Shown here piece by piece: positions 26,776 to 64,000 of a stretch of DNA of 64,000 bases. Within the stretch, counting starts at the first letter, position 1. Each line of letters starts with the position of its first letter. The notes below the pieces were generated by a model that saw nothing but the letters and a program-made list of their open reading frames with translations, was not told the origin of the DNA and searched no databases. The stretch covers positions 6,894-70,893 of the forward strand of contig PDON01000065.1 of assembly GCA_002742935.1 (NCBI GenBank), in the 5' to 3' direction. Source of the stretch: Candidatus Cloacimonadota bacterium (GTDB lineage Bacteria > UBA4055). The position numbers were made by a program, and so were the translations under genes.

Positions 26776-28050
26776 TTAGTTGTAAAGAGGATACTTTGTT
26801 GAAAGAGCAATAACCTCCTCTTTAATAGATGCCAAAAGCTCTTTATTTTTATGATCAGCAGCAACTCTACCAATAAATCCTGCAATAGTTCTCATATCAT
26901 CCTCATTGAAACCTTTAGTTGTTGCTGCAGATGTTCCAAGCCTTACACCACTTGTTATTAAAGGCTTTCTCTTATCATAAGGAACCATATTTTTATTGGT
27001 AGTAATACCCGCTTTTTCCAGAGCTTTCTCTAAACCTTTACCACTAACCTCTTTATCAGAAAGATCCAAAAGTACCAAGTGATTATCGGTTCCACCTGAA
27101 ACAACCTTAAATCCGAGTTTCATCAGCTCATCTGCCAGAGCTTTGGCATTTGCAACTACTCTCTTTTGGTAATCTACAAAATCTTCACTCAATGCTTCCT
27201 TGAATGCTACAGCTTTTGCTGCAATTACATGCATAAGCGGTCCACCTTGAATACCAGGGAAAACTACAAAGTCAGTAGCTTCAGTAATTGTTTTTGGCTT
27301 AGGCATATTTTTTAGTAAGATTTCACCACCTTCAAAATTTGAAAGGATCATACCACCTCTAGGACCTCTTAATGTCTTATGAGTAGTAGTAGTAACCAGG
27401 TGAGAGTATGGAAGTGGAGAAGGATGAAGACCGGTAGCTACCAAACCTGCAATATGAGCCATATCTGTCAATAGATAAGCTCCTACTTCATCAGCAATCT
27501 CCCTAAATCTTTTAAAATCTATAGTTCTTGGATAAGCTGATGCTCCGGCAATAATAACTTTTGGTTTACACTTACGAGCAATCTCTAACACCTCATCATA
27601 GTCAATAAAACCCTCTTTAGTAACACCGTAAGGTACAATATTATACAGTCTTCCGGAGAAGTTAACAGGAGAACCATGGGTAAGGTGTCCACCCATTGAA
27701 AGATCCATTCCCATAATAGTATCTCCAACCTCTGCCAAAGTCATTAAGGCTGCCATATTAGCTTGAGATCCACTGTGAGGTTGAACATTTGCCCATTTAC
27801 AATTGAAAAGCTTTTTCGCTCTCTCAATAGCCAAATTTTCAGCTTCATCAACATAGATACAACCACCATAGTATCTTTTACCCGGATATCCTTCTGCATA
27901 CTTATTTGTCATTACAGAACCCAAAGCTTCAATAACAGTTTTTGATACAAAATTTTCCGATGCAATAAGCTCTATCTTATTATTTTGTCTATCTTTTTCA
28001 TCCTCAATATTTTTAAAAATTTCAGGATCAAAATCTTTTAAACTCTTCAT
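26776..28050 (-). CDS. glyA: Serine hydroxymethyltransferase.
   Basis: Highly conserved throughout, including the PLP-lysine motif [14 protein letters not shown]. Confidence 0.95.
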
Positions 28051-58533: not shown

Positions 58534-59889
58534 CTATTCTATTATTTTTAAATATTTTTGAGACATTTTTTGATGCTCTGGAGATTTTAAATAGGATTCT
58601 ATAACAGGTTTAACTTTCGCTAATTTTTTTAGATTATGGTATTTGTGATAAAATCTGGCTAAATGACAAGTTGAAAGCAAATAATTTCTTTCGTCAGCTA
58701 TTTGTCTAAACAAAAGCCTGGCTCTTAAAAAAGATTTTTCTGATTTTCTATGTTCTCCTGCAATATTTAAATAAGAAAGTCCCCTAACTAATTCAATCTT
58801 AGCTTTTTGATAGTTATTTTCTTTAGTATATTTTTCAGCTTTTTCTAAATATTCGGTTGCATTTGTGTACTCTCTTAATCCATTATAACACATTGCAATA
58901 TTTAAGCATACTTTACCATATTCATCATCCTTTTCCTTTTCAAATTTAAGTGATTTTTTGAAAGATTCTATGCCCTTTTGATACTTTTTAACTCTAGAGT
59001 TAGAAACTCCTAATGTTACTAAGATTTGAACTTTAATTTTAGGATTAGAGGTAGTTGTTAATTGATTTTTAAGCTCATTAATAGTTAATTCGTGATGTTT
59101 TCCCTTTAATTCTAAAGACCTACAAGCACCCTTTATAAATTCAAGGGTAAAACCATTATTACTTGTTTTTTCAAATGTCTCATAAGCTTTATGGTAGCTC
59201 TTTTCTGCTTCTTCTTTTTGGTTGTTAAATTTAAAACAATCTCCAAGATGATAATAAATTTCTCCCTCTATAAAGGAGATTTTACTCTTTAATTTTTCTA
59301 AATATCTTTCTTTTCTTTTTAATATTTTCTTGCCTACTTCAATAGCTTTACTAAAAAGACCCTTATCTCTAAATATGCGGAAAAAAGAATAAATTATTTC
59401 ATAGTAGTTAGGATGTTCTTTATTTTTCGCGAATTTCTGATACTCTTCTAATAATACTTCCTCTTCTTGCTTTTCATATTCTTCAAAATTTTCTAATGAA
59501 GGGAATTCAAAATGCTTATTATTGGTAAGTTTTGCCTTTTTTAGATAGTAGTAAATTGTACCTGCTGTAACTTTGCGACCTAAATTAGTGATAATTTCTT
59601 TGTATGAAATATGCTTATTTTCTTTTTTAAGCTTAACAATTTTTCTCTTTTCTCTATAGCTTAATTTATGTCTTATTTTAAAAGATTCCGGGATTTTTCT
59701 TTGATAAGGTTCTTTTTTATTATTTCTCTCTTTTAGCCAACGATAAATAGAGTTTCTAGAAAAACTATAGGTTGTTGCTAGCATTGAAACGCTAAATCCC
59801 TTGTCATATTCTGCCAAAATTTCGTTTTTAAGTTTTATTGCAACTGTCATGTTGATAGCCTTTTTTATATTGTTTTTTGACTGCCCCAA
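58534..59889 (-). CDS. Putative transcriptional regulator: paired N-terminal HTH motifs plus a TPR repeat array.
   Basis: The N-terminal ~120 aa carry two HTH-like segments (…SRNSIYRWLKE… and …ISYKEIITNLGRKVTAGTIYYYLKK…). Tandem TPR-like repeats follow. Divergent from the small secreted peptide gene. Confidence 0.5.
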   Translation of the reverse strand: MGQSKNNIKKAINMTVAIKLKNEILAEYDKGFSVSMLATTYSFSRNSIYRWLKERNNKKEPYQRKIPESFKIRHKLSYREKRKIVKLKKENKHISYKEIITNLGRKVTAGTIYYYLKKAKLTNNKHFEFPSLENFEEYEKQEEEVLLEEYQKFAKNKEHPNYYEIIYSFFRIFRDKGLFSKAIEVGKKILKRKERYLEKLKSKISFIEGEIYYHLGDCFKFNNQKEEAEKSYHKAYETFEKTSNNGFTLEFIKGACRSLELKGKHHELTINELKNQLTTTSNPKIKVQILVTLGVSNSRVKKYQKGIESFKKSLKFEKEKDDEYGKVCLNIAMCYNGLREYTNATEYLEKAEKYTKENNYQKAKIELVRGLSYLNIAGEHRKSEKSFLRARLLFRQIADERNYLLSTCHLARFYHKYHNLKKLAKVKPVIESYLKSPEHQKMSQKYLKIIE

Positions 59890-59976
59890 AACTAGTATTG
59901 ACTCGTTTTTATTTCTTTTGAATAACTTTTACACTCCTTTTGTGAAAACATCTTAAATTTTAAAAAGGAGAATCTT

Positions 59977-60183
59977 ATGCAGAAGAAACTAACAATTCTG
60001 ATTCTAATTCTTTCAGCTTTATTAACTACTCTCAAGGCTGAAAACCTATGTTCAAATTTGCAAAACCAACCTACAATTGAGAAGTCTGACATTATTTCTT
60101 TAGCTACCCAAAAAGGGGGTCGTACAGGAGATGATAGCGATGACCCCATTGATAACGACCTTGATTTTGACAACTACAAGTAG
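59977..60183 (+). CDS. Small secreted protein or propeptide (68 aa) with an acidic C-terminal tail.
   Basis: AGGAG RBS 7 nt upstream. Signal peptide MQKKLTILILILSALLTTLKA. Supersedes the overlapping antisense ORF 59892..60173. Confidence 0.45.
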   Translation: MQKKLTILILILSALLTTLKAENLCSNLQNQPTIEKSDIISLATQKGGRTGDDSDDPIDNDLDFDNYK

Positions 60184-60728
60184 TTATTTTGTAACATTCT
60201 CATAAAATTAAGAACAATAACTAGGAGTGGCTCCATCACTATATCTATTATAATATATAAATTATAAGTGTAGTTTTATAGGGAAACACTCTTAGTTTCG
60301 TTTATAATTCCCATCTATTTCAAACATATAATTTATCTAAATAATAAAGTTTACAAATTTGTTTATTTTGTCATCTTTTGCATTATAATAAAAAACATTG
60401 GGAAAGTCAACTCTAAAATTGTGGTGTTTTATTTGGATTTATTTGACAATTTACTAATAATTAGCAAGTTAGCTGTAAATATCTTAAATATGGCTTAATT
60501 ATTTCTTTAAGAATTAACTTTTTCTTTATCTATGTAGCTTAACTTACTTTAGATTAAGTAGTTAACCATATAAACTTCTTATACCTTCGTGTCCTAAAAC
60601 TAGAACTAACTCGTTTTGGGAGCTAAAATCTATTTGTTATCCTAAAAACAGAGCTTATGAGTCGCGACCAATTAAAAGCTTCGAAGTAAATTAAGTTTAA
60701 TTAAAACTCCTAAAAGGAGGTGAAAAGA

Positions 60729-60863
60729 ATGAAAGTTGAAAAGAAAGCACAAAGGAGTTTAAAAATGAGTAGCAATTCTAACTTGATGCATGGATTTTTT
60801 GGTCTGTATCAATGCGATTTTGATCTCAGAATTTGCTGTAATGGTTGTAGTTGTACTACTTAA
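60729..60863 (+). CDS. Cys-rich micro-ORF (44 aa, or 32 aa from the alternative start at 60765). Candidate RiPP precursor peptide.
   Basis: GGAGG at 60716-60720, 8 nt before the ATG, and a second AGGAG before the internal ATG at 60765. Translation MKVEKKAQRSLKMSSNSNLMHGFFGLYQCDFDLRICCNGCSCTT*. Sits 167 nt upstream of the radical SAM/SPASM gene and is followed by a hairpin. Confidence 0.5.
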   Translation: MKVEKKAQRSLKMSSNSNLMHGFFGLYQCDFDLRICCNGCSCTT

Positions 60864-61029
60864 TAGTGCCTTTGTACACTATCAATGAGGCTACTCCTTT
60901 GGGATAGCCTCATTATGATCGTTGCACAATAGATTCTTTAAGAAAAAAAAGAATCTTCAAATCATTATTTCAACTATAAATTCATTTTCATGTTAACTGT
61001 AATCTTAAAGTTTAATCGGAGATTTTACA

Positions 61030-62349
61030 ATGAAGTATAAACAGAGTTTTTATAATATATGGCAAGCTCAAAAAGAAAAAGTTTATCTACTAAATACTTA
61101 TTCGGGGAGTATTGTTTCTGTAAATAAAAATGAAATTGGGGTTGTAAACTCAATTCTTGAAGATAAAAATGATATAGATATTGTAAATGAAGAAAAAATA
61201 AAAGAATACATAAAGGTCTTACTTGATAACGGTTTTTTAATTCCTGAAGAGGTTAACGAAAGAGATAGTTTGCAATATATTTATAAATTAAACTATTTTG
61301 ACTCTTCAGTTCTTGATATTGTTCTACTTCCAACAATGAGATGTAATTTTAAATGTCCATATTGCTACGAAGAAGAAAAACAAATGACTTTAACTGAAGA
61401 AAGATTACAATCTTTAATAAAGTTTGCAGAAAAAAATTTTATAAATAAAAATCGAGTAACAATTGGTTTATTTGGAGGAGAACCATTATTAGAATGGAAA
61501 AAAATTAAGAAATTTTTTGATATCGTTTTAAACTTGTCAAAGAAATATGGTTTTATGTTCGCCCCGTCAATAACAACAAATGCTTATTTGTTTGAAAAAG
61601 ATATGATTAACGATATGATTGATAAATATCATTTCAGGTCATTTCAAATATCAATTGATGGATATAAAACGACCCATAATACAACACGAGTGCTAATAGA
61701 GAATGGCAAGGGAACTTATGAAACTGTTCTAAAAAATTTTAAACTTCTTTTAGAAAAGAAGAAACAATCAAAAAAAAATTACAGCTTAACATTAAGAGTT
61801 AATCTTATGAACACAGATGAAAAAAGCATACTAAAACTCTTTAATGAATTTGACTACAATGAAAAAGAACTGTTTTATATTTATTTTAGACCTATTTACA
61901 ATACGAAAAATTTTTGTATTTCAAATTCCAATTATAAAAATTTAGAATCATTTTATTCTTTAGCTATCAAAGAAGGATTTAATGTCGTAACTCCAGGGTC
62001 TAATAGTTTCACTAGCATTCAAGCATGTGAAGGAGACGGTGGAATACACCAAATAGAGATTATGCCTAACCTTTCAATTTGGAAATGCTCAAATAATTTA
62101 AATTGTAAAGAAGCAAATATCGGGGAAATCTGTAATGATGGTAATATTAAATTATTTTATGATAGACTGGAAAAATGGAGTAAAAACAATCCTTTTGAAT
62201 ACGAGAAATGCTCAAATTGTAAGTATCTTCCACTATGTTGGGGAAGCTGTCCATTAAACTTTCTTCTTAATAAGAAAAGAAATTGTTTTTACGAAAAAGA
62301 TTTCAATTTAGTTAATTTATTCTTAAATTCTAGAATTGGAGCTTCATAG
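61030..62349 (+). CDS. Radical SAM/SPASM-domain peptide maturase with an N-terminal PqqD-like RRE (sactipeptide/ranthipeptide-type RiPP maturase).
   Basis: CNFKCPYC (CxxxCxxC) radical SAM cluster. C-terminal SPASM Cys pattern CEGDGG...CSN...CSNCKYLPLCWGSCP. N-terminal ~90 aa winged-helix-like segment before the rSAM core. Confidence 0.8.
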   Translation: MKYKQSFYNIWQAQKEKVYLLNTYSGSIVSVNKNEIGVVNSILEDKNDIDIVNEEKIKEYIKVLLDNGFLIPEEVNERDSLQYIYKLNYFDSSVLDIVLLPTMRCNFKCPYCYEEEKQMTLTEERLQSLIKFAEKNFINKNRVTIGLFGGEPLLEWKKIKKFFDIVLNLSKKYGFMFAPSITTNAYLFEKDMINDMIDKYHFRSFQISIDGYKTTHNTTRVLIENGKGTYETVLKNFKLLLEKKKQSKKNYSLTLRVNLMNTDEKSILKLFNEFDYNEKELFYIYFRPIYNTKNFCISNSNYKNLESFYSLAIKEGFNVVTPGSNSFTSIQACEGDGGIHQIEIMPNLSIWKCSNNLNCKEANIGEICNDGNIKLFYDRLEKWSKNNPFEYEKCSNCKYLPLCWGSCPLNFLLNKKRNCFYEKDFNLVNLFLNSRIGAS

Positions 62350-62450
62350 CTTTTGATCCTTTAAGTTTTGAATATCAGATTTTTTATATTTATATTTTGA
62401 TATAAATATAAATATTTTAAAATTAAGTTTAAATATTAAGGAGTTAAAAA

Positions 62451-64000
62451 ATGAAATCATTGCTAAAGTTTTTTAAATTGTTACCTCTCAAGTATATTAT
62501 CAGCTATTTTATCATAGGGGTTATATTTTCAGTTGTTTTTGTGTTAGAATACTTTAGCCCTTTAATTCAAAAAAATTTGATTGATACTGCAATTAGAGAT
62601 AAGAATATTTTTAATGACTCCTTGTTTCATTTGATTTATCTTTATATACTTTATGCCATTTTTGTTTTTACAGCCACGCTCTCTATTTCCTTTTTGAGAA
62701 TAAAAGTTGGTAAATTGTTTTATTCTGTTTTTTTAAAAAAGATTTTCAGCTTAAAAAAGACTGCTATTCAGAAAAAAGGAACCGGATACTACTATGATAT
62801 TTTATCAAAGGATAAAGAGTCTGCTGTAGCATTGATAAGTTTGTCTTTTTTCTCTCTACTATTTAGTATCATTCAAACTTGCTTTATTTTAGTAATGATT
62901 TGGAAGTGGAGTCGTATTCTTTTTATAATTTTTATGATAGTTCTATTTTCATCTATAATTATAACATCTATTCTAGCTTTGTTTAATAGAAATAATTACC
63001 TAAATATGAGAAAAAACGGTACAACTTTAGCAAATGAGACAATAGATGCTATTTCAAACAATTTTTCAATCCAAAATTTTCTATCATCTAGTATTTTTCA
63101 AAATTTATTAACAAAAAAATATGCCTTTTTTGAGAAGTATATGAGAAGATACATTTACATTGCTACTTCCCCTCAAATAATTGTTTCAATTATTAAGACG
63201 GTTGCATTTGTATTTACCATAGTTTATTCTTTAAATCTGGTTATATCCGGAGAAATGACTTACGGTATTCTACTGGCTATAATCTCATATTTCCAAATGA
63301 TTTTGAAACCAATAGAAAATTTTCATTCAGTAATGAACAACATTGCAGAAAGTGAAGTAAGTATCAAAAGGTTACTTAATTTAATAAATCCTAAAACTAA
63401 TCAATTAAATTATCAAGATAAAGTTATACCTTTGAACAGTATAAATAATCTTACCTTTAAAGATGTTTATTTTGAATACGGAAATTCTAAAAAACAAAAA
63501 CATTATCTTGATTTTAAAATTGAAGATGAAAAAGTTGGAATTGTTGGAATTTCAGGAGAAGGTAAAACTACCTTATTAAAATTATTGTACTTGGAAGAGG
63601 TTGCAAAAGAGGGGAATATTTTTTTAGATGATACAATCTTGGGTAATCTTCCAATCTCTTACTTTCAAGCTATTTTTAATATTTACCCTCAAAATTTAGA
63701 AATTTTTAATAAAGACTTACTCTTTAATTTAACTCTAGGAAAAAAAGTAATACCAAATTCAACTGTGGATAGATATCTAAAAGATTATCAAAACAGATTA
63801 CAACTTTTCTTTGATTATCTTGAAAAAGAACTTCAAAACAGTAATATTTCAAATTCAAAAAAATTTATCAAAATACAAAAATATTTAGAGAAAGATGATT
63901 TTTTAAAGGAAATTTTAGGAGTTATTGATGTTTATGTAGAATCCTATCACATTTATGAAATTAACTTTGATACTTACATTAAATACCTTGATTTTATTGT
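62451..64000 (+). CDS. ABC transporter, fused permease plus ATPase. The 3' end lies beyond the window (partial).
   Basis: AAGGAG RBS 7 nt upstream. Six-TM region, then Walker A GISGEGKTT. Open to the window edge and not in the ORF track because it has no stop. Confidence 0.6.
   Translation, partial: MKSLLKFFKLLPLKYIISYFIIGVIFSVVFVLEYFSPLIQKNLIDTAIRDKNIFNDSLFHLIYLYILYAIFVFTATLSISFLRIKVGKLFYSVFLKKIFSLKKTAIQKKGTGYYYDILSKDKESAVALISLSFFSLLFSIIQTCFILVMIWKWSRILFIIFMIVLFSSIIITSILALFNRNNYLNMRKNGTTLANETIDAISNNFSIQNFLSSSIFQNLLTKKYAFFEKYMRRYIYIATSPQIIVSIIKTVAFVFTIVYSLNLVISGEMTYGILLAIISYFQMILKPIENFHSVMNNIAESEVSIKRLLNLINPKTNQLNYQDKVIPLNSINNLTFKDVYFEYGNSKKQKHYLDFKIEDEKVGIVGISGEGKTTLLKLLYLEEVAKEGNIFLDDTILGNLPISYFQAIFNIYPQNLEIFNKDLLFNLTLGKKVIPNSTVDRYLKDYQNRLQLFFDYLEKELQNSNISNSKKFIKIQKYLEKDDFLKEILGVIDVYVESYHIYEINFDTYIKYLDFI

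Follow-up and report, generated by a model that had tools for sequence, protein, structure and literature searches.

A probable biosynthetic gene cluster for a radical SAM-modified, cysteine-rich peptide in a genome labelled Candidatus Cloacimonadota

Close to one end of a 64,000-nt stretch of DNA labelled as Candidatus Cloacimonadota (contig PDON01000065.1, positions 6,894-70,893, assembly GCA_002742935.1; hereafter "the window", meaning this whole stretch), a gene for a radical S-adenosylmethionine (rSAM) enzyme is preceded by a Cys-rich open reading frame (ORF) of only 44 codons. The locus raises the question of whether this micro-ORF encodes the substrate of the enzyme, i.e., the precursor of a peptide that is synthesised on the ribosome and modified after translation (RiPP). 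The original prediction had proposed a RiPP locus from the order of a regulator, a small secreted protein, a Cys-rich precursor, a hairpin, a maturase and an exporter, and we recovered all of these elements at or near the proposed places. From 58.5 kb onwards, the window carries a gene for a helix-turn-helix/tetratricopeptide repeat (HTH-TPR) protein on the reverse strand, followed by a 68-aa ORF, a 545-bp spacer, the 44-aa ORF, two stem-loops, the rSAM gene and a gene for an ATP-binding cassette (ABC) exporter (Table 1). We consider it very likely that this is a RiPP cluster with the 44-aa ORF as its precursor, and the locus as a whole probably serves the biosynthesis of a small Cys-rich peptide, to be modified by the rSAM enzyme and exported by a dedicated pump.

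The putative maturase comprises an RRE-like (RiPP recognition element-like) N-terminal domain (residues ~1-90), an rSAM core with C105, C109 and C112, which was matched by Radical_SAM PF04055 (E 7e-15), and a SPASM domain with seven cysteines from C333 to C419. In an alignment of 27 sequences (the database search had given 26 relatives with 33-50% identity), the CX3CX2C motif, C105-x3-C109-x2-C112, was invariant in 27/27. For SPASM, we looked for a C-terminal C-x(9-19)-G-x4-C ... CX2CX5CX3C ... C arrangement, i.e., seven Cys for two auxiliary clusters. The motif CSNCKYLPLCWGSC was present, C333, C353, C394, C397, C403 and C407 were invariant, and C419 was at least 90% conserved, so that the SPASM assignment made in the original prediction held when its Fe-S ligands were checked.

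The AlphaFold (AF2) model of the maturase (pLDDT 88.4, pTM 0.87) begins with strands at residues 9-14, 17-22 and 27-31 and helices at 33-43, 54-66 and 77-90, all with high pLDDT. Three strands and three helices are what is expected of an RRE, a winged-helix domain of the PqqD type, and the domain is predicted from the model to bind a leader peptide. A Foldseek search with the model retrieved CteB first (E 7e-19, TM 0.64-0.68) over ~452 aligned columns, corresponding to the whole chain, and the fold matches both CteB and the anaerobic sulfatase-maturating enzyme (anSME) through the C-terminus. When a profile derived from the alignment was compared with solved structures, CteB was again the best match (2.7e-28), followed by TigE, ChlB, anSME and SuiB. 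PDB entry 8VPO corresponds to TigE and is cited in a paper on cyclopropylglycine synthases.

Three curated families in NCBIfam, TIGR04463 (rSAM_vs_C_rich), NF038107 (CefB, Cys-every-fifth) and TIGR04334 (Clo7bot), align with the window enzyme end to end (e.g., profile positions 1-403 of 438; E 1e-46 to 1e-56), and resemble the window locus in an architecture of RRE-like, rSAM and SPASM domains and in having a short gene for a Cys-rich peptide next to the enzyme gene. Nevertheless, the window enzyme scored 189, 164 and 158 bits, respectively, against cut-offs of 525, 600 and 600 bits, and all of the 27 family members lay far under these cut-offs (best E-values 8.7e-62 to 2.3e-54, values that point to scores of similar size). 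The precursors of the window family match no NCBIfam model; a search of ten precursors against NCBIfam and Pfam at E<=10 gave zero model matches. On these scores, the maturases constitute a sister family without a curated model of its own. Matches to the PapB, CcpM, QhpD, SCIFF and anSME models were weaker, and all were far under the curated cut-offs. In an exhaustive search of 1.84 billion representatives of 50%-identity clusters, ~50 clusters scored above 310 bits with the family profile, and from these top clusters the scores fell off gradually through several thousand related maturases (6130 matches at E<=1e-30). The family is thus small and has no sharp separation from its sister families.

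CteB of the SCIFF ranthipeptide system (thermocellin; PDB 5WGG/5WHY) was the best structure match with its N-terminal RRE included, and the two systems have a seven-Cys SPASM domain and a Cys-rich precursor in common. Nevertheless, the identity between CteB and the window maturase is only ~18%, and the window precursor is not a SCIFF peptide, as it differs in the leader, has five Cys and carries a CxC motif; the SCIFF precursor models in NCBIfam were not matched. Of the profile searches suggested in the original prediction, the SCIFF maturase model TIGR03974 scored 69 bits against a cut-off of 425 and PF05402 found nothing; the RRE-like fold was seen in the model, and the alignment with CteB was full-length. 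Of the six catalytic-site positions of CteB named in PMC10288494, two differ, His363 and Gln364 of CteB being replaced by Ser and Asn in the window maturase; comparison of this site with CteB alone does not discriminate. The thioether maturases PapB (freyrasin) and QhpD can be aligned with the window enzyme in the SPASM domain and the rSAM core. The model for PapB, which has 330 positions, gave 105 bits over residues 97-410, leaving the N-terminal domain uncovered, and the QhpD model 75 bits, both under the respective cut-offs of 340 and 453; CxxxD repeats of the PapB/freyrasin type were not found in the window core.

The micro-ORF is best started at ATG 60729, with GGAGG at 60716-60720, 8 nt upstream, in agreement with the strong ribosome-binding site (RBS) claimed for it. 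The 44-aa product, MKVEKKAQRSLKMSSNSNLMHGFFGLYQCDFDLRICCNGCSCTT, can be divided into a leader (MKVEKKAQRSL...GFFG) and a core, LYQCDFDLRICCNGCSCTT, which carries five Cys and a CxCT motif. A second RBS-like sequence, AAAGGAG, lies inside the micro-ORF (60751-60767), 7 nt before an in-frame ATG at 60765 (Met13), and could give a 32-aa product; the upstream start is favoured because the N-terminal MKV.KKA motif is conserved.

In more than 20 loci from unrelated phyla, an orthologous maturase has a counterpart of the micro-ORF next to it, as the original prediction had anticipated for a genuine precursor. (Loci fetched for comparison are denoted by L-numbers; L001 is the public contig that carries the window cluster.) In the closest locus (L003, L004 and L005), where the maturase is 50% identical, two tandem ORFs of 42-43 aa encode MEVLKKANRTIATPNDTPLFGILGFSCDFFCGCRIYCPPPSA and a paralogue. 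A Spirochaetales metagenome-assembled genome (MAG) carries a precursor-like ORF of the form MNVLKPAS...GCQCAGCNCG..., and a small ORF on the same strand adjoins the maturase in nearly all further relatives whose flanks were scanned. The hosts of these loci include Brachyspira, Treponemataceae, Muribaculaceae, Lachnospiraceae, Bacilli, MAGs of Methanothrix and Nanoarchaeota, and metagenome contigs. The small ORFs start with M-[KE]-[VI]-[LI]-[KN] and end in a Cys-rich tail with CxC, such as LDACTCTGNC, NQCGCTDTYCGC, CKGNCGC or CDCTCP, the window tail being CCNGCSCTT. Remoter relatives (Clo7bot-like, Leptothrix and Halanaerobiales) likewise adjoin Cys-rich peptides.

Combining the leader motif with the Cys-rich CxC tail, we counted 18 qualifying ORFs of 25-60 aa in 1.67 Mb of fetched loci, a count that is partly circular as the motifs were defined after the family had been inspected. 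All 18 lie on the rSAM strand next to an rSAM gene, 17 by a family maturase and one (L016) by a remoter relative. By the same motifs, the micro-ORF is the sole qualifier among the 155 ORFs of 25-60 aa in the window. A Cys-rich CxC tail recurs in a single further small ORF of the window (26851-26961, forward strand), which has no leader motif and probably arose by chance. When the two L003 precursors (L003a/b) were searched against 1625 window segments, the micro-ORF ranked first (E 0.013-0.023), and a profile of a five-sequence sub-clade also retrieved it (E ~0.02).

Table 1. Positions of the genes and elements of the cluster (window numbering unless noted)
Feature	Position	Strand	Basis
Predicted HTH-TPR transcription regulator	58534..59850 (mechanical ORF to TTG 59889)	-	Pfam, NCBIfam, public gene call
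22-nt motif, copy 1, AAAACTAGTATTGACTCGTTTT	59888..59909	+	Divergent intergenic region between regulator and 68-aa ORF
68-aa ORF, Sec-type signal peptide, acidic C-terminus	59977..60183	+	GGAG RBS; gene call on public contigs
22-nt motif, copy 2, AAAACTAGAACTAACTCGTTTT	60596..60617	+	112 nt upstream of precursor start
Putative precursor peptide, 44 aa	60729..60863	+	RBS GGAGG; rank-1 match of L003a/b; counterparts beside >20 maturases
Two stem-loops	60878..60922 and 60931..60956	+	Minimum free energy -30.8 kcal/mol, z = -5.5
Putative radical SAM/SPASM peptide maturase	61030..62349	+	439 aa; Pfam Radical_SAM and Fer4_12, conserved Cys, NCBIfam, AF2
Predicted fused ABC exporter (transmembrane and nucleotide-binding domains)	62451..64000	+	Pfam ABC_membrane 21-286, ABC_tran 358-594
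Lipoprotein, 379 aa, lipobox LVSC	L001 11639-12778 (~64549-65688 in window numbering)		Public gene call

Between the precursor and maturase genes, none of 200 shuffled sequences folded as well as the region of the two stem-loops (60878-60956). The stem-loops have no clear U-run and were not called in a strict terminator scan. Similar hairpins separate the precursor from the maturase gene in L003, L168, L007 and L170, and a weaker one does so in L171. The structure probably adjusts the ratio of precursor to enzyme, acting as a leaky terminator or as an attenuator.

The exporter gene runs off the window, as had been predicted. On the public contig it encodes 671 aa (L001 9541-11556; gene end ~64466), the first 516 of the 671 codons lying inside the window. 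Public contigs show that the cluster continues for ~1.7 kb past position 64000 with the rest of the ABC gene and then the lipoprotein gene, and that the next gene encodes an unrelated UvrD helicase. Like the window exporter, the peptidase-containing ABC transporters (PCAT, e.g., ComA) of bacteriocin and RiPP loci are fused transmembrane domain (TMD)-nucleotide-binding domain (NBD) proteins whose genes adjoin those of a precursor and a maturase, and there were weak matches to ComA and to bacteriocin and NHLP exporter models. Nevertheless, the N-terminal C39 peptidase domain of PCAT is missing: Pfam matched only ABC_membrane and ABC_tran in the exporter, with no C39 peptidase (PF03412), and the TMD starts from about residue 21. 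The exporter also differs from standard exporters in an insertion of ~100 aa in the NBD (residues ~445-559), which comes after the Q-loop region and before the ABC signature; ABC_tran spans residues 358-594 for a profile of 137 positions, and the alignment with P-glycoprotein splits at residues 445 and 559. A long ABC protein (644-685 aa) of the same architecture, including the insertion, adjoins the maturase in L003, L007, L009, L012, L168 and L169. Only ~5 close homologues of the exporter were found in a word-indexed search, and the insertion-bearing subfamily is very rare in a database of 5.8 billion proteins.

A look past position 64000 for a peptidase or immunity gene had been recommended in the original prediction; it yielded the lipoprotein directly after the ABC gene, and no peptidase domain in the ABC protein. 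The lipoprotein matches DUF5128 (6-bladed beta-propeller) and structures with NHL repeats, and its counterparts are confined to the two closest loci (L003 and L168; 31% identity). An S41 peptidase takes its position in L169.

The regulator gene probably starts at ATG 59850 and encodes 438 aa, as the public gene call gives 438 aa and the consensus of the homologues begins with MTxAIxIK. Two N-terminal transposase-type HTH motifs are followed by a TPR superhelix (Pfam TPR_12, TPR_8, TPR_1, TPR_2 and HTH_23; the HTH region of IS481/IS630 in NCBIfam). Only four homologues were found. The AF2 model (pLDDT 77) retrieved generic TPR proteins from the PDB ahead of Rap (rank 15) and NprR (rank 49). The 68-aa ORF encodes a Sec-type N-terminus (MQKKLTILILILSALLTTLKA|EN), had no match in Pfam, NCBIfam or PADLOC, and may act either as an accessory protein that is secreted or as a peptide signal. 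In the closest loci (L003 2018-4476 and L168 2077-4527), a 717-719-aa HTH-TPR protein and then a conserved 53-aa signal-peptide ORF (…DWVL.NG…YTG..P.P.PPPP…) lie ahead of the precursors; the 53-aa ORF parallels the 68-aa ORF in position, and no sequence similarity is detectable between the two.

The 64 kb contain exactly two copies of a 22-nt motif, AAAACTAG-N-A-Y-T-R-ACTCGTTTT (0.00 expected), and a partial third box (repeat family D3) lies at 60640-60655. The placement of the two copies suggests co-regulation of the 68-aa ORF and the precursor, probably through an operator or promoter element that they have in common. RRNPP systems resemble this arrangement in that an HTH-TPR protein stands by a small signal-peptide ORF, and in the window a cis-element is common to that ORF and the precursor promoter region. 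RRNPP-type quorum sensing controls streptide production. In contrast to RRNPP proteins, the window regulator has a transposase-like HTH, its fold matches are mostly generic TPR proteins and the RRNPP Pfam models were not matched, so that the likeness is a resemblance only. We set an RRNPP assignment of the regulator low because generic TPR folds came first and the full-length homologues lie away from rSAM clusters. FlmE/OhkG led to a paper on an arginase-RiPP, which is unrelated.

Other readings of the region were dropped. PADLOC gave only generic rSAM and ABC matches for the cluster proteins, on which ground a defence system was rejected, and a structured RNA was rejected as Rfam gave zero matches at E<=1 between 58000 and 64000. 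Promoter-like sites were not commoner than in shuffled sequence.

Taking these components together, the cluster may work as follows. The 44-aa precursor would be translated in excess over the enzymes owing to the hairpin after its gene, and its N-terminal leader (MKVEKKA...) would dock on the RRE-like domain of the rSAM/SPASM enzyme. SAM would be cleaved reductively at the cluster held by C105, C109 and C112, and the enzyme, with two auxiliary Fe-S clusters, would then cross-link the core YQCDFDLRICCNGCSCTT. The cross-links are most likely to be intramolecular thioethers between a Cys sulfur and an alpha, beta or gamma carbon, as in sacti- and ranthipeptides, at a cost of 2 Da each. We lean slightly towards this chemistry because of the conserved cysteines, of CteB as the nearest structure and of PapB, SCIFF and QhpD as the nearest characterised models. 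The modified peptide would be pumped out by the dedicated ABC exporter, and the leader cut off by a protease. The NHL-propeller lipoprotein, beyond the cytoplasmic membrane, may have a part in processing, in binding or in immunity. The 22-nt element would coordinate the precursor operon with the 68-aa ORF, and is plausibly bound by the adjacent HTH-TPR regulator. The final product may serve as a bacteriocin or a signal.

Several observations weigh against parts of this reconstruction. The Pfam models for SPASM (PF13186) and PqqD (PF05402) did not match the maturase at E<=0.1, and the SPASM and RRE assignments consequently rest on the Cys motif, the full-length NCBIfam matches and the structure model. 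A hidden Markov model built from 21 precursors of related loci missed the micro-ORF (rank 544 among window segments), and, at the sequence level, homology of the precursor is demonstrable to the closest locus only, the family-wide link being one of motif and position. Limited sequence homology is usual among RiPP precursors. No leader peptidase was found in the cluster. The two full-length homologues of the regulator occur in unrelated contexts, not beside rSAM clusters, and the 22-nt motif was found in none of the 172 other loci, nor was an equivalent repeat in L003 or L168. Our literature searches retrieved no papers under the TIGR04463, Clo7bot and CefB names, and no experiments on the family or its nearest curated neighbours; no papers were found on Cloacimonadota together with ranthipeptides. 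The rSAM/SPASM enzymes are polyfunctional. Full-length similarity has been reported to mis-predict rSAM chemistry (PMC10288494).

This last point speaks for the most serious rival, in which the same genes carry out another reaction, e.g., a C-C or C-O cross-link, epimerisation, cyclopropyl formation, some further alteration of a side chain or a novel reaction on CxC(T), and the cysteines of the product form disulfides or bind metal. The position of the family under every curated cut-off counts in the same direction, as do the second-tier structural relatives, which include the cyclopropylglycine synthase TigE, the epimerase EpeE, ChlB and SuiB (an enzyme that forms a C-C cross-link between Lys and Trp). 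Moreover, CxC and CxxC spacing is typical of metal-binding peptides too. Nevertheless, nothing in the cores but Cys is conserved consistently across the family and its sister families, the best match in both sequence and fold is a thioether synthase, CteB, and the PapB, SCIFF and QhpD maturase models match as well. We thus consider a different chemistry rather unlikely, albeit clearly more probable than either of the two explanations that follow, both of which dispute the pairing of the enzyme with the micro-ORF.

If the micro-ORF were a chance ORF in AT-rich DNA (GC ~31% in the window), the maturase would be an orphan or would act on a peptide encoded elsewhere. It is true that the whole-set precursor profile misses the micro-ORF, that its nearest precursors detect it with an E of only ~0.02 and that it is uncalled as a gene on the public contigs. 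Such a coincidence is nonetheless very improbable in view of the strong RBS at ideal spacing, the first rank of the micro-ORF in the L003a/b searches, its singularity among the window ORFs in combining the leader and tail motifs, and a position and strand identical to those of the peptides in more than 20 related loci, with a hairpin of the conserved type after it. That the rSAM enzyme is instead an anSME or another protein-modifying SPASM enzyme, for which the micro-ORF is irrelevant, is hardly conceivable any longer: anSME is among the structural matches and TIGR03942 is matched weakly, but at 63 bits against a cut-off of 349, and the RRE-like N-terminal domain is extra, outside the coverage of the anSME matches. 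The genes called on the 16.6-kb public contig that surrounds the cluster include no sulfatase gene, and a small Cys-rich ORF persistently accompanies the maturase. We regard the anSME reading as effectively refuted already, the enzyme grouping with the peptide maturases instead. The three points on which that prediction had been exposed beforehand, i.e., the Fe-S ligands, the conservation of the micro-ORF and a grouping with anSME, were all run, and none of them overturned the reading of the locus as a RiPP cluster.

The source and spread of the cluster deserve comment. A MAG labelled Candidatus Cloacimonadota bacterium has proteins with 100% identity to the window maturase and ABC exporter, and a MAG labelled Candidatus Delongbacteria has a partial protein with 100% identity to the window regulator. 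As the same DNA is filed under two phylum names, the taxonomic label is uncertain at the level of the candidate phylum. The GC content of the cluster is 0.24-0.29 against ~0.31 for the window, a difference too small for an argument for horizontal transfer from GC alone, which we rejected. Horizontal transfer has probably scattered the family itself: members occur in spirochaetes, in Cloacimonadota-like MAGs, in Firmicutes and Bacteroidales of the gut and in several MAGs of archaea. Family maturases with adjacent precursors of the LDAC.CTGN type occur in MAGs labelled Nanoarchaeota and Methanothrix (L008 and L010), another family maturase in a Thermoplasmatota MAG (P0022), and those of L170 and L171 lie beside genes for a Mu transposase, a relaxase or a type IV secretion system; these archaeal occurrences and mobile-gene neighbours suggest mobile, cross-domain spread. 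A second, distantly related rSAM gene lies downstream of the family maturase in L012 (8284-9609), L013 (5445-6770) and L090 (9738-11105), which hints at a two-enzyme maturation in those branches.

It is attractive to speculate that the conserved CxC(T) motif receives a new kind of cross-link and that the product, instead of being a bacteriocin, belongs to a signalling circuit, in which the HTH-TPR protein senses a processed 68-aa peptide and switches on the RiPP operon through the 22-nt box, although we regard this combination as a long shot. RRNPP quorum sensing has so far been described mainly in Firmicutes and their phages. If the speculation were true, an RRNPP-like peptide quorum sensing would exist in a candidate lineage of the Fibrobacteres-Chlorobi-Bacteroidetes (FCB) superphylum, together with a maturase-precursor family that reaches the archaea (Methanothrix, Nanoarchaeota and Thermoplasmatota).

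The class to which the cluster belongs, rSAM/SPASM-modified Cys-rich RiPPs, is well known, and standard genome-mining tools would probably flag the cluster; our findings extend this class and do not overturn its current understanding. What the locus defines is a small maturase-precursor family without a curated model, the precursors of which have unusually short, CxC-rich cores. As some of these cores are only ~9-18 residues long, the family offers a compact target for the discovery of rSAM chemistry. The insertion in the NBD of the exporter and the propeller lipoprotein could shed light on the ways in which these peptides leave the cell, are processed or are tolerated, and the cluster would exemplify a RiPP from a candidate phylum that has no cultured producers.

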